The notes below the pieces were generated by a model. The model did not search any database and had not been told where the DNA came from. It was given only the letters and a program-made list of their open reading frames with translations. The translations under genes were made by a program, and so were the position numbers. From positions 78,534 to 110,533 of the forward strand of contig CAYZRF010000003.1 of the NCBI GenBank assembly GCA_964480775.1: a stretch of 32,000 bases of DNA, given 5' to 3'. Within the stretch, counting starts at the first letter, position 1. The number at the start of each line of letters is the position of its first letter. Positions 1,757 to 28,964 of this stretch are shown here, piece by piece. Source of the DNA: an uncultured Nitrososphaerota archaeon (lineage in GTDB: Archaea > Korarchaeota > Korarchaeia > Korarchaeales > Korarchaeaceae).

Positions 1757-2095
1757 TATTCACTCATTTGTGATCACCAAACGTTACTACAACAAGTGAT
1801 CCTCTCTTGTGCGCTTCTTCTATAAGTCGGGAAAAGAAAAAAGGCTTGATGATGAAAATGAAGTTCAGAAATGGGTTTTCCAAGATACCTGTTGAGGCTG
1901 GAATGATTGGGCTCAGGGTAACTAGATCATTGGACACGAAATCGGCTTTGCATGAAATAATAACCATAAACATACTGCTAAATGAGGGCAAGGACTCGAG
2001 TTCAAGCCCATTGAAAGTGTAATTTATCTATGGAATGATAGTCTCAAATTGTGAGTTGAGATAAAAAGCGCGTATGGTGAGGTGGCTTGGTAGGC

Positions 2096-3427
2096 ATGCC
2101 AGATGTAACACGGATAGAGCCTTGGAGCAAAGCGAGACTAGGCGAGGTAAGCGGAAGCCTTCTTATTGGTGAAGGAGCAACTATTCGAGGGGAAGGAGAG
2201 CCACCCAAGGTCAAAGTAGATGGATCCGTGATATGCAAGGGCGATTGTACTTTTCTATGTAGTTTAGAGGCTTTGAAACTTGATGTAAAAAGAGGAGATA
2301 TAAACATTGAGGGTGACCTGAGCGTTGAAACTAGCGTTAGGGTGAAAAGAGGAAGCTTGATGGTAAAAGGCGCCGCTAAGGCCGAAACCTTCGAAATCGA
2401 TAAGAAATTGATTGTTCAAAGAAACCTCGAGGGTGAAGAAATTAGGGTTGGCGGATCGTTAGAAGTCGGTGGAGAGACTAAAGCGGAGACAATCGATGTT
2501 GGAGGGGGGTTCATAGCCAAAGACAAGGTCAAAGCCGAGAAAGTAAAGGTTGGAGGGAAGTTTACTGGAGAAAAGGATGTCGAATTGGAAGAGCTAAATG
2601 TCGGAGGAAAAGCTGTCATCACAGGTGGAAAAATCACTGATATAAATGTCGGAGGGGGATTCGAATCAAAGGGTTCTCTCGTGTTTGAAAATATGGATGT
2701 GGGAGGAGTTGCAAAACTTGGAAAAGGGAGCGCAGGCGGAGAAATAAATGTCGGAGGGGCTCTAAAAGCTGAAGATGGACTGAAGTTCGATAAAATAGAT
2801 GTTGGCGGGCTTGTTTCTATTAAAGGGAGTGCAGAAGGAGGCGAAATCAACGTTGGAGGTGTACTCAAAATCTCTGGCTCCATAAATTTCGATAAGCTTG
2901 ATGTTGGCGGTAAAGCCAGCATTTCAGGCAGAGCACAGGGGGAAGATGTTGAGGTCGGCGGTGCCATAACAGTTGATGAAGACCTTTTACTTACTGGCAG
3001 ACTCGATGTTGGAGGAACATGCAAGGTTAGAGGTCTTCTAAAGGCGGAATCTATGAAGGTTGGTGGAGGAGTTGAGGCAGATCTCATTGAGGTAGAGGAT
3101 CTGATAAAGGTTGGCGGCTATATTAGAACATCAAGGGGCACAAAGGCTAGAGAAGTAAGAATAGGCAAAAGAGGAGAGATAAAAGGTCCTGTTATAGCAG
3201 AAGAAGTCTTGATCGAGGAAAGGGCCAGGGTAGAGGATGTTTATGCCGACGAAATTGTTATGGAAGAAAGATCGAGAGCAAAAAGCCTTCATGGTAGGAG
3301 GATCTACTTGGAGAGGAGGTGTAGAGTTATAGGAGAGGTAGAATACACAGAAAGCCTAGAGAAAGAAGCAGAAGTTGAAATAGGATCAGAGAAAAAGATT
3401 GATGACCTCAGAAAACCTGAAATCTAA
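2096..3427 (+). CDS. bactofilin-like (polymer-forming cytoskeletal, beta-helix) repeat protein with charged C-terminal tail
   Basis: About 15 copies of a [IVK][DNEK]VGG turn motif recur every ~10-20 aa (IDVGGGF, VKVGGKF, LNVGGKA, INVGGGF, MDVGGVA, INVGGAL, IDVGGLV ...), as in bactofilin/DUF583 beta-helices. The ORF track starts at TTG 2087. I prefer ATG 2096, which lies 11 nt after GGTGAGGTGG (2075-2084). Confidence 0.7.
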   Translation: MPDVTRIEPWSKARLGEVSGSLLIGEGATIRGEGEPPKVKVDGSVICKGDCTFLCSLEALKLDVKRGDINIEGDLSVETSVRVKRGSLMVKGAAKAETFEIDKKLIVQRNLEGEEIRVGGSLEVGGETKAETIDVGGGFIAKDKVKAEKVKVGGKFTGEKDVELEELNVGGKAVITGGKITDINVGGGFESKGSLVFENMDVGGVAKLGKGSAGGEINVGGALKAEDGLKFDKIDVGGLVSIKGSAEGGEINVGGVLKISGSINFDKLDVGGKASISGRAQGEDVEVGGAITVDEDLLLTGRLDVGGTCKVRGLLKAESMKVGGGVEADLIEVEDLIKVGGYIRTSRGTKAREVRIGKRGEIKGPVIAEEVLIEERARVEDVYADEIVMEERSRAKSLHGRRIYLERRCRVIGEVEYTESLEKEAEVEIGSEKKIDDLRKPEI

Positions 3428-3781: not shown

Positions 3782-4927
3782 ATGAATTCGTTCTCTAAGA
3801 TATTTAAAGGCTGGAAAATGTTCTGTTTTAAATGCGGCCGTACTCAGAAAATAAGCAAGTCATGGAAGTGTGAATGTGGGCATCCTTTATCCCTTACTAT
3901 GGATCTTAAAGGCATTCAAGTAGATCCTTCGGAGCTTAAAAAAAGAACTTCTACTTTGTGGAGGTATAGGGAACTTCTTCCAGTAGCATTTAACAGAGAG
4001 GTATCTCTGGGAGAACCAATTACACCTCTCATCCAACTTGATTTGATGGGTTTAGATTCATGCTTCCTTAAGCTGGAATTCCTATTTCCAACGGGCTCAT
4101 TTAAGGATAGAGGATCCTCAATCATGATATCGGTAGCTAAGATTATGGGAGTTGAGAAAGTAGTAGAAGATTCTTCAGGTAATGCTGGGGCCTCTGTTGC
4201 GGCTTATTCTGCAAAAGCAGGCATTTCTTGCAAAATATTTGTACCTTCTTACGCCTCTGGGTCAAAACTTCTCCAAATAAAAGCTTATGGGGCAGAAGTC
4301 ATTGCAAGAGGTTCAAGGAACGATGCCTCAATTTTTGCGATAAAAGAAGCTGAGAAAGGGATTTTCTACGCGAGCCACGTGTGGAATCCCTTCTTTTTAG
4401 AGGGAACCAAAACTTTTGCATTTGAGATCTGGGATCAAATCGGATTTAAGGAACCAGACGCTCTGATATTGCCCGTTGGTCACGGAACTCTCTTGTTAGG
4501 AGCATACAAGGGATTTTTGGAACTAAAAGAGATAGGTATGATCAATAAGTTGCCTAGGTTATTCGGAATTCAGGCAGAAGGTTTCTCTCCTCTAGTCGAT
4601 AGACTGCACGGACAAACTCAAAGTGAAGGCAGCTCTCACTTAGCTGACGGTATAATGATAAGGGATCCGCCTAGACTAGATGAATTGGTGAATTCCATTC
4701 AAAAGACTAGAGGAGATGCTCTTACTGTTAGAGACGCTGAGATAAAAGAAAATTGGAAGAGATTGGCTAAAAAAGGACTTTTTGTTGAGCCCACTTCTGC
4801 CGTAGCTCTTGCTGGGTTAGAGAAGCTGATAGCCGAAAGACTTATTGATAGGGACGAGTATATAGTTGTTCCTTTAACTGGAAACGGGCTTAAGACTCCT
4901 CATAAGATATCAAAACTAATGATCTAG
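3782..4927 (+). CDS. thrC: threonine synthase (PLP-dependent), short archaeal type with N-terminal Zn-ribbon
   Basis: PLP-lysine motif FPTGSFKDRGSS, the SSGNAGASVAAY loop, and an N-terminal CxxC...CxC ribbon (FKCGRTQKISKSWKCECGHPL). An alternative in-frame ATG at 3818 (MFCFKCG...) is equally plausible. Confidence 0.85.
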   Translation: MNSFSKIFKGWKMFCFKCGRTQKISKSWKCECGHPLSLTMDLKGIQVDPSELKKRTSTLWRYRELLPVAFNREVSLGEPITPLIQLDLMGLDSCFLKLEFLFPTGSFKDRGSSIMISVAKIMGVEKVVEDSSGNAGASVAAYSAKAGISCKIFVPSYASGSKLLQIKAYGAEVIARGSRNDASIFAIKEAEKGIFYASHVWNPFFLEGTKTFAFEIWDQIGFKEPDALILPVGHGTLLLGAYKGFLELKEIGMINKLPRLFGIQAEGFSPLVDRLHGQTQSEGSSHLADGIMIRDPPRLDELVNSIQKTRGDALTVRDAEIKENWKRLAKKGLFVEPTSAVALAGLEKLIAERLIDRDEYIVVPLTGNGLKTPHKISKLMI

Positions 4928-9736: not shown

Positions 9737-10993
9737 ATGAAATTGTACAAAGTGAAAGATATATCGCTTGCTCCTGAGGGAAAAAAGAAGATAGATTGGG
9801 TCTCCAGATTCATGCCTGTCCTAAACAAGATAAATGAGGAATTCAAGGAAAAAAGCCCTCTAAAAGGTTTGAAGATAGCCTGTTGCCTACATCTAGAGAT
9901 GAAAACTGCTTATCTGACATTAGTTCTGAAGGCAGGCGGTGCTGAGGTCTCACTAGCTGGTAGCAACCCTCTTTCCACGAAAGACGATGTTTGCGCAGCC
10001 CTAGCCACAGAGGGGATCAGGGTTTACTCTTGGCATGGAATGACAAGGGAGGAATACTATGAGAATCTCCACAAAGCATTAGACATCGAACCAAACATAA
10101 TAATAGATGACGGGGCAGATCTTACGGCAATATTGCATAAGGAAAGGAAAGAGCTCATTCCAGATATAATGGGTGGGAGTGAGGAAACCACAAGCGGAGT
10201 GATCAGACTTAAAGCTATGGAAGCTCAAGGAGTCCTCAGATTTCCAGTAATAGCAGTGAACGACTCAAAGTGCAAGTACATGTTCGACAATAGGTACGGA
10301 ACCGGGCAATCAGCTTTCGACGGCATAATGAGGGCCACGAATCTTCTAATAGCTGGAAAAAACGTTGTAATAGTCGGCTACGGTTGGGTAGGTAGAGGCC
10401 TTGCAGTAAGAGCTAATGGTCTCGGTGCCAACGTTATAGTGACAGAAATAGATCCTATAAGAGCCTTAGAGGCTAGAATGGACGGATTCAGGGTTATGTC
10501 AATGCTGGAAGCTGCAAGAATCGGAGATGTCTTTATCACAGCGACTGGTAACATAAATGTTATCAGGAAGGAGCACTTCAAAATCATGAAAGACGGCGCT
10601 ATTCTAGCAAACGCAGGGCACTTTGACGTTGAGATAAGCAAACCTGACCTTGAATCCTTGGCTAAGGAAGTTAATAGGCCAAAAGAAAACGTTACAGAGT
10701 ACTTAATGTCAGATGGAAGGAGGATATACCTGCTCGCTGAAGGAAGGCTGGTCAACCTTGCAGCAGCAGACGGTCACCCGGCGGATATAATGGATATGAG
10801 CTTCGCTCTCCAAGCTTTAGCAGCAAAATACATAAAGGAATACTCTTCAGAGCTAGAGCCAAAAGTTTACAGACTTCCGGAGGAAATAGACAGGAGAGTC
10901 GCCGAGATAAAGCTTGAATCTATGGGAATTCAAATAGATAAGCTTACAAACGAACAAAAGGAATATCTGAAGAATTGGAAGGCTGGAACCTAG
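9737..10993 (+). CDS. ahcY: adenosylhomocysteinase (S-adenosyl-L-homocysteine hydrolase)
   Basis: Family hallmarks throughout: [45 protein letters not shown]-binding [12 protein letters not shown] and GHFDVEI. I start at ATG 9737 (MKLYKVKD) rather than the TTG at 9698 in the ORF track. Confidence 0.93.
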
Positions 10994-11478
10994 CAAAGGC
11001 TCTCTCTGTGACGTTGAAGGAAATTGTAAAGCTTATGAACGATCTCTTCTTGGGAAGGGACCTCAACTGCATGGGGAATCTTCCTTCTAACCTCTGAAAG
11101 AGCTTCAGAAGGAGTTAATCCATCTCTATAAACCAGGTAGCATGCAGCTATCGTACCCGTTCGCCCTATCCCGCCATAACAGTGGATTAATACGGGTTTT
11201 CCTTCAGAAACTCTCTCGGATATCCATTTAACGAGCTTCATGCACTGATCAAGGCTTGGAGCTGAAAAATCCCTAATCGGGGAGTGGTAAACATCAAATC
11301 CTAAATCCCTTAGCTCGTTTAGATAGCTTTCAATGGACTTCCAAAGAGGAGCTATCTCATGATCCTCAATTAAGACTACAATCGCTCTGATCCCAGAATT
11401 TAACCAGCGAAGAAGATCTTTTTGACCATTAGGCATTGGGGATCCAGCTATCTCTCCCTTTCTTACCCATTTGAGCAT
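10990..11478 (-). CDS. Cys-based protein tyrosine / dual-specificity phosphatase
   Basis: The P-loop [11 protein letters not shown] matches the HCxxGxxR[ST] signature. The 162-aa size is like small archaeal PTPs. Its stop overlaps the ahcY stop (CTAG at 10990-10993). Confidence 0.85.
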
Positions 11479-16717: not shown

Positions 16718-17104
16718 TCAAGAAGCCTCTTCTTTAATCCAAAGTCCATGGATGTTACAATATTCTTTGACCACTAATCGTTTCTCTTTTATTTCAAACC
16801 CGGCTTCTGGCTTGTCTCCAGGCTTCAAAAACTTTCTGAGGACGTTACCATTCGCAATTACTTCAATCCATTCTATGTAGTGTTTTTCTTCCATTGGGTG
16901 TGGTATCGAACCGATTTTCACCTTTACTCCTGTCTCAGTCCTTTCGACTACTGGAACGTGCTTTTCCTTCCCAACATCTTCTTTCTTTTCTTCAAGAAGT
17001 TCCATGGGCTGACCGCAACAAACAAGAGTTCCAATTCCCGTGTGCAGAACCTCGACTATGTTTCCACAGATGTTACATCTATATACCTGAAGGAGTTCAG
17101 TCAT
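16718..17104 (-). CDS. dfx: desulfoferrodoxin (2Fe superoxide reductase)
   Basis: N-terminal desulforedoxin-like centre I ([12 protein letters not shown]...LVCCGQPM), followed by the SOR centre II domain (KEKHVPVVE..., [23 protein letters not shown]). Length 128 aa. Confidence 0.9.
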
Positions 17105-17134
17105 AAGCTACTACCTCCCAAATCTCTTTGCTGA

Positions 17135-17554
17135 TTATATATCCTCAAGCAGGCTCGTGAAGAAGTCGTGATGTTCTTCTTCATCTTCCAATATCTTCCT
17201 AAAGAGCCTGCCAGTCGTAATATCATCCTCTTTCCTTGCAACTTCAATTATTCTCCTATACAAATCTATAGCCGTCTCCTCATCCTTTTTATCTCGCTCT
17301 ATCATCTCCTTCAAACTTTCCCCAATAAAGATAGGATCTGGCTTCGTAGTTGGGGACCCGCCAAAATATGCCAATCTCTCAGCAATTGCTTCTGCATGCT
17401 TCATCTCCTCTATAGCTATGTTTTTTAGCTCTTCTTTTACTGCAAAGCCCCTAACTCCCTTCCACATGACGTGTTGCCACATGTACTGTATGGCAACTTG
17501 AAGTTCTCTTGCGATGGCTTTGTTCAGCAACTCCATTAATTCTTCAGAAACCAT
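17135..17554 (-). CDS. bacterioferritin/Dps-like ferritin-fold protein
   Basis: Four-helix-bundle di-iron ligand pattern (ARELQVAIQYMWQH, EEMKHAEAIAERL, DEETAIDLY, LEDEEEHHDFF). The 139-aa gene lies 30 nt upstream of dfx on the same strand, so they probably form an operon. Confidence 0.8.
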   Translation of the reverse strand: MVSEELMELLNKAIARELQVAIQYMWQHVMWKGVRGFAVKEELKNIAIEEMKHAEAIAERLAYFGGSPTTKPDPIFIGESLKEMIERDKKDEETAIDLYRRIIEVARKEDDITTGRLFRKILEDEEEHHDFFTSLLEDI

Positions 17555-17560
17555 TACATC

Positions 17561-17580
17561 ACCTTTGTTATAACAAAGGT
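17561..17580 (-). promoter_or_regulatory. 20-bp perfect palindrome ACCTTTGTTATAACAAAGGT abutting the RBS of the ferritin-like/dfx operon
   Basis: Read directly. On the minus strand it runs into AAAGGTGATGTA-ATG, so one arm overlaps the GGTGAT Shine-Dalgarno, 6 nt from the ATG at 17554. It is either a candidate operator or an SD-sequestering hairpin. Confidence 0.5.
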
Positions 17581-17670
17581 TATCAAAATTAAACTTAATG
17601 GTTCGGGATTTTATCTGGAAGTCATAACATTTTATCTGCTCTATGAAAAGAAGCTTTGAACCATTTTTTC

Positions 17671-17704
17671 AAAAAAAGGTGGGGGTGAGGGTTTTTGAAC
17701 CCTC
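17671..17704 (-). terminator. hairpin plus T7 run downstream of the peroxiredoxin gene
   Basis: The minus strand reads GAGGGTTCAAAAACCCTC (7-bp stem, 17687-17704), then ACCCCCACC and TTTTTTT (17671-17677). It begins 13 nt after the prx stop. Confidence 0.5.
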
Positions 17705-17717
17705 GCGATTTGTTTAT

Positions 17718-18374
17718 CTATATTTTCTTGTGGCAGAACCACCAATCAAAGCATTCGTACTCTTTCAACCTTTTCTTAGCTGTTTCCTCATCTGTTGCTG
17801 GGGGTATTATTGCTCTATCACCAACCAGCTCGTTGTTGGGCCAGTTCGCAGGCAAAGCCACACCTTTTTCATCCGATATTTGAAGTCCCTTTACCATTCT
17901 TAGAATCTCATCCATGTTTCGTCCTAGCTCTTGTGGATAATAGAGAATAGATCTGATAATACCTCTAGGATCTATGATGAAAACGGCCCTAACAGTGTTT
18001 GTTCCCTTAGAAGGATGAACCATTCCAAACAAACAAGCGATCCTTCCGGTATCATCAGCGATTATTGGGAACTTTATCTCAACATCAAGCTTCTCCTTTA
18101 TCCACTCAACCCACTTTATGTGACTAAATACCTGATCTATGCTCAATCCTATTAAATCACAATTGAGTTTCTTGAACTCATCATATCTCTTCTGGAAAGC
18201 TACGAACTCAGTGGTGCATACCGGCGTGAAATCAGCGGGATGAGAGAACAAAATGACCCATTTCCCTTTGTAATCCTCTGGAAACTTAATCTTGCCCTTT
18301 GTAGTTTGAGCTTCAAACGATGGAGCCTTTTCTCCTATAAGTGGTAGTCCTCCTGCTTTAACTTCAACTTCCAT
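17718..18374 (-). CDS. peroxiredoxin (archaeal Prx6/1-Cys-like thiol peroxidase)
   Basis: Peroxidatic Cys motif [15 protein letters not shown], plus [15 protein letters not shown] and RAVFIIDP. I use ATG 18374, which is preceded by GGTGAC, rather than the TTG at 18386. Confidence 0.92.
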
Positions 18375-18685
18375 TTTTGTCACCAAATCAATTTGGATGT
18401 TATTATTACCTTATTGTATCTATATAAAAATGAATAGGTTTACTTTTCGAACCTTTTGATAAACTGAGATCACAGCAAGATCTTCAGAAAATCAATGGTC
18501 GTGTGAACCAATAGGAAGGGTACTGTACCCTTTGATCAATGCCATTTGATAAAAAATGGCGAATTGAGGTAAAAAGGGTGGCAGAAAGATTAAAAAGAAA
18601 AAATGAAATTTTGTCCAACCTTCAAGGTGGAAGAGGATGAATGTAGGGGATCTAGTTTGGCTGCTATAACCCTGAAGAAGTCTGT

Positions 18686-19123
18686 TTGAAAAGTATTACT
18701 CGTAAGTCTAGCGGAGTAGTCTTTTTGCCCACTAAGTCTTTGCATCCTCACGAGAAGATACGTCCATCGCGTCTCAAAGAATTATCAAAAGAGATCTTGG
18801 ATGAAGGTGTTTTGAGGAGGCCCCTCGTTGTCGATCGCAAGACGAGGGTGATCTTGGATGGACACCACAGATATCGTATTTTACAATTGCTTGGAGTAGA
18901 AATCATTCCAGTTCTGCTCGTTGAATACTCCTCCCCAGATGTAAGCGTGTTTCCTAGAAGGGTAGGATACAGGGTTTCAAAGCAACTTGTGGTAGACATG
19001 GGGCTTAGCGGTCAGCTAATGCCCCCAAAGACTACTAGGCATGTGCTGGAAATAGATACAAGACCAGTTGATCTTCCCTTGAAATACTTGCTGAAGGTAG
19101 GTGTAGGAGGAGATCTGTTTTGA
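18686..19123 (+). CDS. ParB/Srx-fold (ParB N-terminal domain-like) small protein
   Basis: [31 protein letters not shown]...[16 protein letters not shown] matches the ParB/sulfiredoxin nucleotide-binding fold pattern (DGxHR). The start is TTG with no in-frame ATG nearby. The stop overlaps the next gene's start. Confidence 0.65.
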
Positions 19124-20409
19124 AAATAAGAGTGGATATGTCTGCGGAAGATATTCCAAAATCTTGGTATAACATCCTGTCTGATCTGGGGGAAATCCCT
19201 CCAATGATCGATCCAAGGACTAAAGAACCTTTGAGCCCAGATGCATTGTCCGTTCTATTCCCAAAGGAATGTGTTAAGCAGGAAACTTCAAAGGAAAGAA
19301 GCATAAGAATCCCTGAAGAGTTAAGGGAACAGTATATCAGAATAGGAAGGCCAACCCCCCTTTACAGGGCAAAGAGATTAGAGGAATATCTCAGAACTCC
19401 AGCAAAGATATTCTTCAAGAGAGAGGATGTAACGCCGACTGGTAGCCATAAGCTAAACACAGCCTTAGCTCAAGCATATTACGCAATGCAGGAGGGAACT
19501 GAGAGGCTTACTACAGAGACTGGGGCAGGTCAGTGGGGATCTGCTCTATCTTATGCAGGAGCAATGTTCGACCTCAGTGTATTGGTCTTCATGGTAAGAA
19601 TATCCTACAATCAAAAACCATATCGGAAGTTTGTGATGAAGCTTTATGGAGCCGAGGTTGTTCCATCGCCAAGTGACAGAACAGAAGTAGGCAAACACTT
19701 CTTGGAGGAGAATCTAGAACACCCTGGCTCGCTAGGTATAGCGATAAGTGAAGCAATAGAGGTCGCTGTTAAGGATGAAAAGAGTAAATACTCTCTAGGA
19801 AGTGTTCTTAACCACGTTCTTCTACACCAAACAGTCATTGGACAAGAAGTCCTAGAGCAGCTAAGAAGACTCGAATTAAAGCCAGACGTCATGATAGGGT
19901 GCGTTGGTGGAGGAAGCAACTTTGCAGGTTTTACCTTTCCGATGATAGGCTGCGTTCTCAGAGGTGAGGAAAAAGAGACTAGGTTCTTGGCTGTAGAACC
20001 TGTTGCGTGCCCATCAATGACTAAAGGAGAATACAGATATGATTTCGGAGATGCAGGAAAGACAACACCACTAATGAAGATGTTTACTCTCGGCTGTGAC
20101 TTCGTTCCACCTCCCATCCATGCGGGAGGACTCAGATATCACGGCGCAGCTCCAACAGTATCTCTCTTGAAGAAGGAGGGAATCATAGAGTCCATTGCCT
20201 ACCCTCAGGAAGAGGTCTTCAAGGCCGCAAGGCTTTTCGCAGAACTTGAAGGCTTTATACCGGCCCCAGAAACATCTCATGCAGTTAAAGCAGCTATAGA
20301 TGAAGCCATTAAAGCTAAAGAGAAAGGAGAAGAAAGAGTGATTGTGTTCAATTATTCGGGACACGGACTGCTAGACTTATCAGGATACGATCAAGTCCTT
20401 GGGTTGTAG
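19120..20409 (+). CDS. trpB2: TrpB-like PLP-dependent enzyme, TrpB2 (long) type tryptophan synthase beta chain
   Basis: PLP-lysine motif [34 protein letters not shown] and the C-terminal SGHGLLDL. The N-terminal extension with [12 protein letters not shown] and the ~429-aa length are typical of TrpB2. The TTG start at 19120 overlaps the upstream TGA (TTGA) and lies 9 nt after GGAGG (19106-19110). Confidence 0.9.
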
Positions 20410-20423
20410 GAGGACATCTAATC

Positions 20424-20438
20424 TCTTCCCCTTTTTTC
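20424..20438 (+). terminator. pyrimidine/oligo-T tract after trpB2
   Basis: TCTTCCCCTTTTTTC begins 15 nt after the TAG stop. Confidence 0.4.
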
Positions 20439-20765: not shown

Positions 20766-21506
20766 ATGCCTGACAATATTCTCCTATGGTTGGGTTGTGT
20801 TTATAGAAAAAACCTTATTCCAGAAAAAGAGAGCATATTATCAGTGTTCAGGACAGCTGGGGTGAATTTTGAAACTCTAGATGAAGAGGGATGCTGTTAC
20901 TTTCCATTATTCCTAGCTGGTCAAACTGAAATGGCAAAAAAACGTGCGAACGAGCTTGAAAAGGTTCTATCAGAATATGAAGTGATAGTGACCCCCTGCC
21001 CTGCGTGTTACAGGATGTTCACTCAAATTTTTCCAGAGGAGCTAGGAAAGAAATTGAAGCCAAATGTGCTTCATACAAGTCAATTTTTCCTTAAACTCAT
21101 AAAAGAAGGCAGACTTGTGCCTAAAAACAAGGTGAGCATGAAGATAATGTATCATGATCCTTGTGAATTGGGAAGGCATTCTGGAATCTATGACGAGCCA
21201 AGAGAGCTCATCTCCTCCATCCCTGGCTTAGAAATCTTTAGACCCAGATTTGAAAGGGAGAAGTCTGTTTGCTGTGGTGGGGGAGGCCTACTCCCTGCTT
21301 TCTTTGCCTCTCTATCTGCCAAGATTGCGGCAAGAAAAATCGAAGAGGAGGACAGGGTACCAGAGGATCTTGATGCGATAGTAGCAGGATGCCCTCAATG
21401 CATCTCAAACATAAGGATGGGACTTCCTTATCTGAAGAATAAGGATCTAAGGAATCTAAAGGTGATAAACTTGGCCCAGCTAATCGAGATGTCCATTAAG
21501 AGGTGA
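20766..21506 (+). CDS. lutA: (Fe-S)-binding CCG-domain oxidoreductase, LutA/LldE-like
   Basis: Two cysteine-rich CCG-type motifs (PCPACYRMF...HDPCELGRH and KSVCCGGGG...GCPQC). The length (246 aa) and the position directly upstream of a LutB-like gene also fit. Confidence 0.8.
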   Translation: MPDNILLWLGCVYRKNLIPEKESILSVFRTAGVNFETLDEEGCCYFPLFLAGQTEMAKKRANELEKVLSEYEVIVTPCPACYRMFTQIFPEELGKKLKPNVLHTSQFFLKLIKEGRLVPKNKVSMKIMYHDPCELGRHSGIYDEPRELISSIPGLEIFRPRFEREKSVCCGGGGLLPAFFASLSAKIAARKIEEEDRVPEDLDAIVAGCPQCISNIRMGLPYLKNKDLRNLKVINLAQLIEMSIKR

Positions 21507-26212: not shown

Positions 26213-26573
26213 AAGTATTTAAATGATTTCTAATATTTAAAACATTCATCGATTGGCTTGAGCAATTCAAAACCAAAGAACGCCACAACATGGAGACAAT
26301 CGATATGCAAGCAATTTCACCTTTACAAATTGAGCAATATGGAAAATTTTGAAAAATAGGATAAAAACCTCTTTCAAGATAGTTCTTAGCCTTTTAAAAT
26401 GGATCCTTTGAAATCTTTGAGTAGAGAACCATGATGGACACAAAAAGCCTTTTAGAAAGAAGTAGATTGCTTCTTTTTCGCTTTTTATCGAATAATAAAG
26501 TTCGTACGGAGCTGTAAAGCCAAGACAATCTCTAAAAACAAAGGTTTTTATCCTCTGAACGCAAAAAGACGTG

Positions 26574-28964
26574 ATGAGCAAACTTCGGGTTTTGTACTGT
26601 GCGGCCTTGGCAGCATTACTGATATCTCAATTACCAATAGTTGCACAGCAACCTAAGCAATACATCCTCTATACCTTGCTTAGAAATGGAAACATCGTTA
26701 AGATATTTCCAAATGGTTCTATGAAGTCTGTAGGAGGCGTTGGAAAAGCTTTCTATTCGATAGATGTGTACGGGAATAGAATCTACATTCCAGACCTAAA
26801 CATGGGTAAAGTAAAGGTCTACAATCTAGATGGGAAATTCCTTAGGTACATTTCCATGCCGGAGACGGAGGGATTTGCTGAGATAGTTGCCCTTCCAAAG
26901 GGTAGGGTGGCACTTATTGACAATGCCCTAGATGTAATCTTCATACTGAATGATTATGGAACCCTCTTGAAGACGATAGACCTTCCAGTGGGCCTTGATA
27001 ATAAAAGACAGGTCGTAGATGCGGGAGTTGTAAACGAAACCCTTTATGTCTTCGATGGTGCCAGCGGAATGATACTTAGAGTGTACCTTAACAACTACAT
27101 GCTGGCAACCTCTATGGACATACAGAGCAAGCTAGGGGAAGAAATCAGAGCTGTAGCTTTTACTTCCGGAAACTATTACTTGGCAACTAGGAGTAGGATA
27201 TACAACAGCTCCTTTGATCTCGTGGCTGAACTTGAGGACTGGCCAATTGAAAGCATAGTTGTAGCAGGAGACCATCTTTATGTGGCCGTGGGTTTTGGAG
27301 GCAAAATATATGAGGTTAACATAAAAACAGGGAACGTGAGCGTTTATGCATCCGGATTAGACTATCCCATAGAGCTCACAGTTCAAGAGATAGAGCTTCC
27401 TTCTTCTCCCACTCCCACACCTACAACAGCGCCACCAACCACAACAACACCACCTACTCCTCCATCAACTACGCCCAGTCCAACCCCTTATCTTCCAACA
27501 ATATCCAAACAGACATTGATCTGGGCCTATGGACTGATAGGGGGTGGAATTCTATTCATAGGCTTGACTGCGATTCTTATTAGAAGGAGGAGAAGGCCGA
27601 AAAGGCCTAAATATCCTGTTTGGACTGAAGGAACATTTGAGGAGCCTATGCCTGTCCCAATGGAGGAGCTCAAAGTCGAAGTTGAGCCAAAGCCTGAGGA
27701 GTTCAAAGTTAAGGGGCCTTCCGTTGAGAAGGTGAAAGAAGAAGTTCCTGAGATACCAAAACCTCCTTTGGAGAAAGTTGAAGAGGTAGAAAAGCCCGAG
27801 AGGATAGGTGAGGTAGGATTACCAGTAGTTTCTGAGACTAAGGAAGAGAAAATAGATATAGTCGAGCCAGAAGAGCCAAAACTGGTTGAATTGGAGGAGG
27901 TTGAGAAACCTAAGCCAATTGCTGAAATCAAAGAAAAGCCAAAGCCAGAGAAAGCTGAAAAAGTCCCTGTAGAGAAAGTCAAGAGAGAGATCAAGATGCC
28001 CAGGCTTAGAGCGCTGATAGAGGAAGCCAAGAAAGAAATGGAGTTAAAGGAGCATGAAAAGGTTCCCGTAGCGATAATAAGAAAAGAAGGCCTGAAAATC
28101 CCAAAGAAACCAATCATCGAGGAAGTCAAGAAAGAAGTTAAACCAGAGGAAGAGAAGCCAGAAATACCCTCAATTCTCGAGGAATTCAAGAAAGAATTGG
28201 TTCGTAAGGAACCCAAACCAAAGCTTATACCAGAACCGGAGCCTAAACCTAAGCCAGAGCCAGAGACTAAGCCCGAACTTCCAGAAATTGAGGAGACAGG
28301 GGAAGAGAAAAAACCAGTAATGCCGAAAGAAATCTTTATTGAGAAAATATTTGAGAAAAAGCCAGAGGAACCCGAAATAATTGAAGAAATTAGGGAGGAA
28401 GTCGAAAAAGAAATAGTACCGAAAGAAATCGAAGAGAAGGGGATTCCTCCTCCGGAAACGGTGGAACCGGAAAAAATAGTTGAAGAATTAGAGAAGCCAG
28501 CGTTATCTTTGGAGGAGACGTTAAAAGAAGAGAGACTTAAGCTACCAGAGAAACCCTCGATACTAGAGGAATTCAAGAAAGAAGTTTTGCGTAAGAAGCC
28601 CACACCCGAGCCAGAATTACCAACAAAACCTGTACCAGAACCAGTCAAGGAAGAAGTGAGAACAGAGGAGAAAATAGTAAAGGAAGAAAAACTAGAATTG
28701 CTAGAAACACTAGAAAAACCCATTGAAGAGAGAGGATATGAAGAGCCCGAAGTACCGGAAGAGATTAGCGTCAAATCTCTTTGGGAGTACTTCAAAGAGA
28801 AAGCTAGGAAGGAAGAGAAGGCAAAAGAAGCAGAAGAAGAGAAGAAGGAAGAAGAGTTGAAACCTCAGGAAGAAGAGGAAGTAGAAGAGGAAATTGATGT
28901 CGAAGACCTATGGGAGTACCTTAGGAAGAAGTATGAATCTGAAAAAGGAGAAAAGAGCGAATAA
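26574..28964 (+). CDS. type-I membrane protein: signal peptide, beta-propeller-like (NHL-like) ectodomain, Thr/Pro linker, TM helix, ~450-aa E/K/P-rich tail
   Basis: Signal peptide MSKLRVLYCAALAALLISQLPIVAQQ. Repeated strand motifs (IYIPDLNMGKVKVYNLDGKFLRYI, LYVFDGASGMILRV, LYVAVGFGGKIYEV). Linker SSPTPTPTTAPPTTTTPPTPPSTTPSPTP. TM helix LIWAYGLIGGGILFIGLTAILI followed by RRRRRPKRPK. The tail is low-complexity with repeated PSILEEFKKE[LV][VL]RK and [SD]LWEY[FL][KR]K motifs. Confidence 0.75.
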   Translation: MSKLRVLYCAALAALLISQLPIVAQQPKQYILYTLLRNGNIVKIFPNGSMKSVGGVGKAFYSIDVYGNRIYIPDLNMGKVKVYNLDGKFLRYISMPETEGFAEIVALPKGRVALIDNALDVIFILNDYGTLLKTIDLPVGLDNKRQVVDAGVVNETLYVFDGASGMILRVYLNNYMLATSMDIQSKLGEEIRAVAFTSGNYYLATRSRIYNSSFDLVAELEDWPIESIVVAGDHLYVAVGFGGKIYEVNIKTGNVSVYASGLDYPIELTVQEIELPSSPTPTPTTAPPTTTTPPTPPSTTPSPTPYLPTISKQTLIWAYGLIGGGILFIGLTAILIRRRRRPKRPKYPVWTEGTFEEPMPVPMEELKVEVEPKPEEFKVKGPSVEKVKEEVPEIPKPPLEKVEEVEKPERIGEVGLPVVSETKEEKIDIVEPEEPKLVELEEVEKPKPIAEIKEKPKPEKAEKVPVEKVKREIKMPRLRALIEEAKKEMELKEHEKVPVAIIRKEGLKIPKKPIIEEVKKEVKPEEEKPEIPSILEEFKKELVRKEPKPKLIPEPEPKPKPEPETKPELPEIEETGEEKKPVMPKEIFIEKIFEKKPEEPEIIEEIREEVEKEIVPKEIEEKGIPPPETVEPEKIVEELEKPALSLEETLKEERLKLPEKPSILEEFKKEVLRKKPTPEPELPTKPVPEPVKEEVRTEEKIVKEEKLELLETLEKPIEERGYEEPEVPEEISVKSLWEYFKEKARKEEKAKEAEEEKKEEELKPQEEEEVEEEIDVEDLWEYLRKKYESEKGEKSE

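Follow-up and report, generated by a model that had tools for sequence, protein, structure and literature searches.

In a stretch of 32,000 nucleotides (nt) from an uncultured archaeon of the Korarchaeaceae (contig CAYZRF010000003.1), referred to here as the window, a gene for a small protein with a ParB/sulfiredoxin (Srx) fold overlaps the start of a gene for a stand-alone TrpB2, a TrpB-like enzyme that uses pyridoxal phosphate (PLP). We propose that the small protein, encoded by open reading frame (ORF) A, is a candidate lid-less minimal kinase of free serine that would supply O-phospho-L-serine (OPS) to the TrpB2 encoded by ORF B, and we give this reading of the module as a whole a probability of about 0.6. 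A module of a serine kinase and TrpB2 had been raised as a candidate in an earlier, sequence-only reading of this DNA, and as a candidate it is backed by homology, predicted fold and gene context. ORF A belongs to a family, here called mini-SerK, whose members resemble the archaeal serine kinase SerK but lack its central domain.

Gene structure of the pair

ORF A (18686..19123, + strand) starts with TTG and encodes 145 amino acids (aa), predicted to form a ParB/Srx-fold core followed by a C-terminal helix and strand of the SerK type. The motifs from which the fold had been recognised in the sequence-only reading are located in the translation, LHPHE at residues 19-23 and ILDGHHRY at 56-63, and the key residues of the protein are H22-E23 (within the PHE of the first motif), D58-G-H-H-R62 and K115-T-T-R-H119. 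The gene ends in a TGA (19121-19123) that overlaps the TTG start of ORF B (19120-19122), the two forming a TTGA at 19120..19123 (+ strand), and a Shine-Dalgarno-like GGAGG (19106..19110, + strand) precedes that TTG by 9 nt and falls within the 3' end of ORF A; both features of the junction had been described before and are present at these positions. ORF B (19120..20409, + strand) encodes 429 aa with the PLP-lysine motif GSHKLN. Its TTG start is supported by the alignment to TrpB2 structures and to the NF009057 model, which begins at residues 1-2. Since homologues are numerous for both ORFs, they are real genes and not chance reading frames. A run of six T residues read from the sequence at 20433..20438 (+ strand), 24 nt past the TrpB2 stop, is a possible archaeal oligo-T terminator closing the two-gene unit, and the first ORF beyond TrpB2 begins at 20766.

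The start of ORF A differs in the public record, where a protein 99% identical to it (P0001) is called from an internal TTG at 18725 and has 132 aa, 13 residues fewer than ORF A as read in the window. We favour the 145-aa form because the N-terminus is conserved in a 73% identical relative (P0002), and because residues 6-18, which align to SerK, include a confidently predicted beta-strand at 11-15. The start at 18725 is thus probably a start-codon mis-call, which would delete the first beta-strand.

ORF A resembles SerK without its central domain

Pfam recognises in ORF A a marginal ParB_N domain alone (27.6 bits vs a gathering score of 26.3), and there is no match to DUF1015. Among the NCBIfam models, the best match is to SerK (NF053625; 58.5 bits, cut-off 380), at model positions 8-97 and over a short C-terminal stretch, followed by SbnI (NF033589; 33.2 bits over the N-terminal 80 residues, cut-off 350), Noc (TIGR04285; 23.1 bits, cut-off 315) and ParB (TIGR00180; 18.4 bits, cut-off 58.45). 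A profile of the mini-SerK family gave the same order against the Protein Data Bank (PDB), with 95 bits for SerK, 56 for SbnI and about 24 for ParB. The AlphaFold2 model of ORF A (pLDDT 86.4, pTM 0.81) also agrees: its query-normalised Foldseek TM scores are 0.78-0.79 to SerK, 0.64-0.70 to SbnI and about 0.4 to ParB, Noc and Srx, the values for sulfiredoxin being about 0.38-0.42. The comparison with ParB/Srx families proposed in the sequence-only reading therefore places ORF A closest to SerK, and then to SbnI, in every library.

The SerK and SbnI chains measure 242-256 aa, in agreement with the length of about 250 aa given in the earlier reading. The Foldseek alignment to SerK spans 225 columns for a query of 145 aa, at about 17% identity, and the SerK structure 5x0b is matched in two stretches, residues 6-94 of ORF A corresponding to SerK 13-105 and residues 98-135 to SerK 204-241. 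Because the alignment splits in two, ORF A can be described as SerK minus its central ~100 residues (~106-203). It had been suggested that the small protein may keep the nucleotide-binding half alone. This is not so, as the last ~40 residues of SerK, including the invariant KTTRH, are retained and it is the central domain that is missing.

Catalytic residues of SerK are retained. E23 of ORF A lines up with SerK E30, which was mutated in crystal entries (E30A and E30Q; 5x0e, 5x0j), D58-G-H-H-R62 is identical to SerK 69-73, and K115-T-T-R-H119 is identical to SerK 221-225. In the profile alignment to the SbnI structure 5uje, E23 and D58 fall on SbnI E20 and D58, two residues that are reportedly essential in that enzyme. 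The PHE glutamate, DGHHR and KTTRH are invariant or nearly so in homologues 37-41% identical to ORF A. The resemblance of the two validated kinases to each other and to the mini family is concentrated in the N-domain and C-terminal segment, which suggests that the essentials of the enzyme have been retained. ORF A should nevertheless not be filed as SerK or SbnI, because it scores far under the cut-offs of both models and a defining domain is missing.

A generic ParB-like role, in which ORF A would be a DNA-binding regulator or partition protein, a nuclease or a sulfiredoxin standing beside TrpB2 by accident, would fit the lone Pfam match to ParB_N, the names 'transcriptional regulator' and 'ParB N-terminal domain-containing protein' given to family members in databases (others are 'hypothetical') and an early report of the P. 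furiosus SerK homologue as a nuclease. Sulfiredoxin in particular would fit the gene for a 1-Cys peroxiredoxin (17718-18386, - strand) that is divergent from ORF A. The protein, however, has no helix-turn-helix (HTH) or dimerisation domain and no GERRxR box, ends 45 residues past the Srx-like core, and stays at 18 bits on TIGR00180, where the cut-off is 58; its motif is DGHHR, against GERRxR in ParB and GGCHR in sulfiredoxin. Sulfiredoxin chemistry is excluded because the translation contains no cysteine whatsoever, and a sulfiredoxin serving the adjacent peroxiredoxin was rejected on these grounds and because the 73% identical relative lacks this adjacency. Phage and defence libraries yielded generic matches of 19-29 bits, and a role as a defence or phage ParB-nuclease was rejected on such weak matches. 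An accidental neighbourhood, finally, is at odds with linkage to TrpB2 and to CysM/OPSS (O-phosphoserine sulfhydrylase) genes that recurs far beyond chance across independent lineages. We regard the generic reading as largely refuted and give it very little probability: clustering with DNA-binding ParB or nuclease families and loss of the serine- or nucleotide-binding residues were not seen, and the equivalents of SerK E30 and of SbnI E20 and D58 are kept.

ORF B is a TrpB2

ORF B exceeds the cut-offs of both curated TrpB2 models, with 690 bits for NF009057 (cut-off 366) and 671.7 bits for TIGR01415 (cut-off 518.85); the TrpB1 model gives 157 bits, under its cut-off of 392. The highest-ranking PDB matches are to structures of S. 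solfataricus TrpB2 (6hul_B, 4qys_B and 6hte_B), in alignments spanning residues 1-427. By these comparisons ORF B is a true TrpB2 with the long-type N-terminus, as the sequence-only reading had it, and it shares with the S. solfataricus enzymes TrpB2i/TrpB2a (6hul, 4qys, 6hte) both the end-to-end alignment and the curated models. Dependence on OPS, and a preference for it over serine, have been reported for TrpB2 enzymes (Busch 2014, cited in PMC11917138).

Like the trpB2_o genes, ORF B stands alone, outside any trp operon. Of 34 ORFs of at least 110 aa, seven that lie antisense within larger ORFs were omitted, and the 27 large ORFs remaining besides A and B were scanned with Pfam. None of these 27 ORFs in the 32-kb window encodes TrpA, TrpC, TrpD, TrpE, TrpF or TrpG, and the earlier remark that neither trpA nor any further trp gene is present is thereby confirmed.

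Conservation of the pair

We analysed the pairing first from the side of TrpB2, in the 80 closest metagenomic relatives of the window enzyme. All eight TrpB2 relatives of at least 65% identity with enough upstream sequence have the small gene immediately upstream. At 55-62% identity, linkage is found in 2 of 70 TrpB2s, and there the small gene lies downstream. The pairing occurs in both gene orders in Korarchaeia-type archaea, Micrarchaeota, Bathyarchaeia and one bacterial metagenome-assembled genome (MAG), and a further TrpB2 pair (L008) stands in an unrelated neighbourhood. The pairing is strictly conserved within one TrpB2 clade and is not general to TrpB2, and it arose, or was rearranged, independently in other lineages. 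Conservation of the gene neighbourhood, on which the sequence-only reading had staked the pair, thus holds at close range (8/8) and recurs in both orders across phyla, but it is rare among distant TrpB2s (2/70) and is specific to the clade.

The junction is conserved as well. In all 12 pairs examined with the small gene upstream, the genes overlap or are separated by at most 21 nt; the overlap is of 4 nt in seven of them, and loci with this same overlap include L001, L080, L097-L099 and L121. A GGAGG or GAGGTG is found 8-15 nt before the TrpB2 start in 12 of the 12 pairs, down to identities of 42% for ORF A and 53% for TrpB2.

In a neighbour-joining tree, small proteins with the same type of neighbour cluster together. 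The window protein belongs to a clade in which TrpB2 is downstream in every case, and the proteins with TrpB2 upstream form separate branches.

The mini-SerK family and its neighbours

A locus scan of GTDB species-representative genomes, for which the alignment was pruned to 12 sequences, found 375 mini-SerK loci. An exhaustive profile search of representative protein clusters gave 6409 clusters at E<=1e-3 and 297 at E<=1e-30, mostly of 125-170 aa; the 28 homologues returned by a word-indexed protein search are a strong underestimate by comparison with the profile search and the genome scan. ORF A has the traits of the family, namely a length of 125-170 aa, the motifs PHE, ILDGHHR and (P)KTTRH, and absence of the SerK central domain. 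Archaeal carriers are Thermoproteota, Bathyarchaeia, Korarchaeia-type archaea, Thermoplasmatota, Micrarchaeota, Njordarchaeota and Brockarchaeota, and bacterial carriers are Thermodesulfobacteriota/Syntrophia, Cryosericum/Caldiserica, Patescibacteria and others. No curated model claims the family. Several top-scoring members (P0029-P0034) carry two copies of the domain, and two representative proteins (P0035 and P0068) are natural fusions of a mini-SerK domain to CysK/M. In other fusions (P0041, P0058, P0111) the partner modules are an NAD_binding_1 oxidoreductase, SET and an NTP-transferase.

Neighbours were then labelled from the side of the small protein, on the same strand and within 400 nt, at 85 loci, the context analysis covering the best 80 of the 375 GTDB loci. 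TrpB2 is adjacent at 10 of the 85 (four downstream, five upstream and the truncated locus L010), or about 12%. Enzymes of the CysM/OPSS type are adjacent at 24, of which 13 adjoin archaeal CysK-family enzymes of 386-420 aa and 11 adjoin Cryosericum CysM-like enzymes. One long archaeal enzyme, that of L016, was searched against the PDB; its best match was the Aeropyrum pernix OPSS (1wkv, 244 bits), with about twice the score on any other cysteine synthase. In Cryosericum/Caldiserica (L023, L045, L049, L058, L060, L063, L064, L075, L077) mini-SerK is followed by a CysM-like enzyme of 295 aa, and at least seven of these loci (L023, L045, L049, L058, L060, L063, L064) have genes for a NifS-like cysteine desulfurase and/or an IscU-like protein upstream, so that the cluster looks like a route from serine through OPS and cysteine to iron-sulphur (Fe-S) supply. 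In three MAGs of the Nitrososphaeria/Calditenuaceae type (L037, L076, L086), mini-SerK has a TrpB1-like gene at a distance of ~0.8 kb, with a score of about 150 bits against the TrpB2 of the window.

The third context is that of glycine cleavage, with GcvH followed by GcvP at 21 of the 85 loci, three of which also have an overlapping gene for a SerA-like dehydrogenase upstream. In Thermodesulfobacteriota/Syntrophia (L013-L044; for example L041, 3708-4145) mini-SerK stands between the SerA-like 2-hydroxyacid dehydrogenase, which is encoded upstream with a 4-nt overlap, and GcvH and GcvP, and an ACT-domain protein is often encoded nearby. This context suggests a role in serine/glycine assimilation or in replacement of SerB, and the proteins are possibly tied to the reductive glycine pathway. 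It is also a setting that would fit an enzyme working from OPS to serine (OPS + NDP -> Ser + NTP, or hydrolysis) in place of phosphoserine phosphatase, in which case linkage to TrpB2 would reflect a balancing of serine and OPS and not a supply of OPS. According to the GapMind 2026 preprint, kinases of the SbnI type can take the place of SerB, a protein whose gene, it says, is often missing. Reversal of a kinase is thermodynamically unfavourable, however, as the same preprint concedes, and since TrpB2 and OPSS consume OPS, an enzyme that destroys it would be an odd partner in an operon or a fusion. We consider this direction of the reaction quite unlikely for ORF A.

Among the other members, those of the Thermoplasmatota (38% identity) have no linkage to TrpB2, CysM/OPSS or glycine-cleavage genes. 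A physical link between the characterised A. pernix OPSS and the mini-SerK of that organism was considered and rejected, the mini-SerK gene adjoining genes for topoisomerase VI; in Stetteria, a mini-SerK/OPSS pair is present. The common denominator of the partners is serine or OPS, and not one protein surface.

This bears on a different explanation, in which ORF A makes no OPS and is a non-catalytic, regulatory nucleotide switch, possibly binding CTP, that docks on TrpB2 or CysM/OPSS and activates, stabilises or gates the PLP enzyme, replacing allosteric activation of the TrpA type. The tight translational coupling suggests a 1:1 stoichiometry, which would suit a docking protein, as would the natural fusions to CysK/M, the loss of the SerK lid domain and the fact that TrpB2 has no TrpA partner in the window. 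Yet the invariant PHE glutamate, DGHHR aspartate and KTTRH are the catalytic set of SerK and SbnI and would not be expected in a pure docking protein; TrpB2, CysM/OPSS, SerA and the glycine-cleavage proteins are unrelated to one another and share serine or OPS; and many family members are not linked to any PLP enzyme. A regulatory role of this kind is therefore unlikely in our view.

A proposed serine kinase and TrpB2 module

In the kinase reading that we prefer, ORF A would bind a nucleotide through the DGHHR loop, and Glu23, the equivalent of SerK Glu30, would act as the base in phosphorylation of the hydroxyl of free L-serine to OPS. TrpB2 would then eliminate phosphate from OPS and condense the resulting aminoacrylate with indole, giving tryptophan. 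Transcribed and translated together, the two genes would make up a self-contained unit converting serine and indole to tryptophan, parallel to the logic of SbnI-SbnA and SerK-CysK, with TrpB2 as the consumer of OPS. Such a unit may serve in indole salvage, as the sequence-only reading suggested. The kinase activity, the phosphate donor, the direction of flux, the use of OPS by the window TrpB2 and the source of indole are all elements that we infer.

Several observations weigh against this proposal. ORF A lies far under the equivalog cut-offs of both kinases (58.5 vs 380 for SerK; 33 vs 350 for SbnI), and absence of the whole SerK central domain is the chief structural doubt over a predicted kinase. 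Linkage is found in just 2 of 70 TrpB2 relatives at 55-62% identity, and for the mini-SerK family TrpB2 is a minority neighbour; at 30 of the 85 family loci, no gene of the types looked for lies on the same strand within 400 nt, and the A. pernix member, in an organism with a characterised OPSS, is unlinked to it. Fusions to SET, NTP-transferase and NAD-binding modules suggest additional uses of the fold. Cells with SerA and SerC already make OPS, so that a kinase is not strictly needed there. Finally, a SerK-like archaeal protein has been reported to bind CTP rather than ATP (PMC12704722), a report that also speaks for the regulatory switch discussed above.

A stronger form of the kinase proposal would have mini-SerK dock on its PLP partner (TrpB2 here, CysM/OPSS elsewhere), with the partner closing the kinase site and OPS being handed over directly. 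We hold this to be improbable. If true, it would make the pair a two-enzyme, phosphoserine-channelling tryptophan synthase in which a kinase occupies the place of TrpA in the classical complex, and it would give TrpB2 its first physiological role and partner.

Other genes of the window

Upstream of ORF A, on the minus strand at 16718-18386, an oxidative-stress cluster encodes a desulfoferrodoxin, a ferritin-like/rubrerythrin protein and the 1-Cys peroxiredoxin, and is separated from ORF A by an A/T-rich spacer of 299 nt. In the 73% identical relative just the desulfoferrodoxin is retained at this position and adjacency to the peroxiredoxin is lost. Downstream of ORF B are LutA/LutB-like genes.

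The window holds a second PALP enzyme (3782-4927, + strand), a fold-type-II PLP enzyme with an N-terminal extension of ~70 residues whose best PDB matches (170 bits) identify it as a threonine synthase. The possibility that this gene encodes an OPSS sharing the kinase was rejected on those matches.

An ORF for a phosphatase of the dual-specificity/protein tyrosine phosphatase (PTP) type lies at 10990-11478 (- strand), 7 kb from the ORF A/TrpB2 pair, and a similar DSPc phosphatase gene is found in Stetteria hydrogenophila (L172, 3295-3804, - strand), divergent from the mini-SerK/OPSS pair and directly upstream of it; the presence of a phosphatase near the pair in both may be coincidence. Elsewhere in the window, an ORF of 797 aa (26571-28964, + strand) has no Pfam match at E<=1e-5 and contains an antisense ORF of 422 aa (27527-28795), an ORF of 446 aa (2087-3427, + strand) has a bactofilin-like repeat region (40 bits) that is unusual on an archaeal-type contig, and a TetR-family regulator is encoded at 867-1463.

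Relation to known systems

The logic of a kinase supplying OPS to a PLP β-replacement enzyme is already known. SerK supplies OPS for cysteine synthesis in Thermococcus (PMC5120207). In the study of Makino et al. (2016), clear homologues of SerK were confined to Thermococcales and a few Desulfurococcales, and no connection with tryptophan was made. ORF A shares with SerK, the ADP-dependent kinase of archaea (T. kodakarensis TK0378; 5x0b/5x0e; NF053625), the ParB/Srx core, the PHE glutamate, DGHHR and KTTRH, and would share with it the role of supplying OPS to a PLP β-replacement enzyme. It differs in its 145 aa against 242 aa, lacking the central domain (~106-203), and in its operonic association with TrpB2; in T. 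kodakarensis, serK stands outside any operon and is tied physiologically to cysteine and 3-phosphoglycerate. Mini-SerK proteins are also spread over far more taxa than SerK, which is reported from Thermococcales and Desulfurococcales.

The closest parallel in gene arrangement is SbnI-SbnA of Staphylococcus, where a ParB/Srx-fold, ATP-dependent serine kinase and regulator is encoded with an OPS-consuming PLP enzyme of the CysK family. SbnI is the second-best match to ORF A in sequence and in fold, and the equivalents of its E20 and D58 are kept as E23 and D58. At ~254 aa it is longer than ORF A, possesses a C-terminal region and also acts in regulation; it has DGVHR in place of the DGHHR of ORF A, and its C-terminal motif (VTRF) is weakly similar to KTTRH. 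The product of SbnA is a siderophore precursor, whereas that of TrpB2 is tryptophan. The DUF1015 'SerBK' proteins of the GapMind 2026 preprint are likewise proposed as an SbnI-like serine/OPS family and are encoded beside serA, but they have about 410 aa, belong to a different family and are proposed to replace SerB, not to feed TrpB2. ParB/Spo0J/Noc and sulfiredoxin have in common with ORF A the nucleotide-binding ParB/Srx fold of ~90 residues (TM about 0.4), and bear HTH and dimerisation domains, the arginine patch of GERRxR or a catalytic cysteine, none of which is present in ORF A.

A neighbourhood analysis (Merkl 2007; PMC1854888) gave no conserved context for trpB2 genes outside trp operons, whereas here the clade of at least 65% identity always has mini-SerK upstream. 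Very short single-domain archaeal proteins were noted, with no function assigned, in a 2025 survey of the ParB-CTPase fold. In the literature searched, to which many subscription papers did not belong, no study connecting TrpB2 with a serine kinase was found, and both the mini-SerK family and the coupling of its gene to that of TrpB2 appear to be undescribed so far.

Significance

TrpB2 is widespread, yet its physiological role and the origin of its OPS have long been unclear. A conserved, translationally coupled partner that resembles a serine kinase makes the route from serine through OPS to tryptophan, with free indole, directly testable. Beyond TrpB2, the small protein belongs to a large family, mislabelled in databases and present in hundreds of archaeal and bacterial species, whose gene context points to serine/OPS metabolism. 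If its members are kinases, free-serine kinases would be far commoner than the known examples from Thermococcales, Desulfurococcales and staphylococci, the SerK catalytic core would come down to about 130 residues, and the first step that is missing from OPS-dependent cysteine synthesis would be supplied for many Thermoproteota and for Cryosericum.

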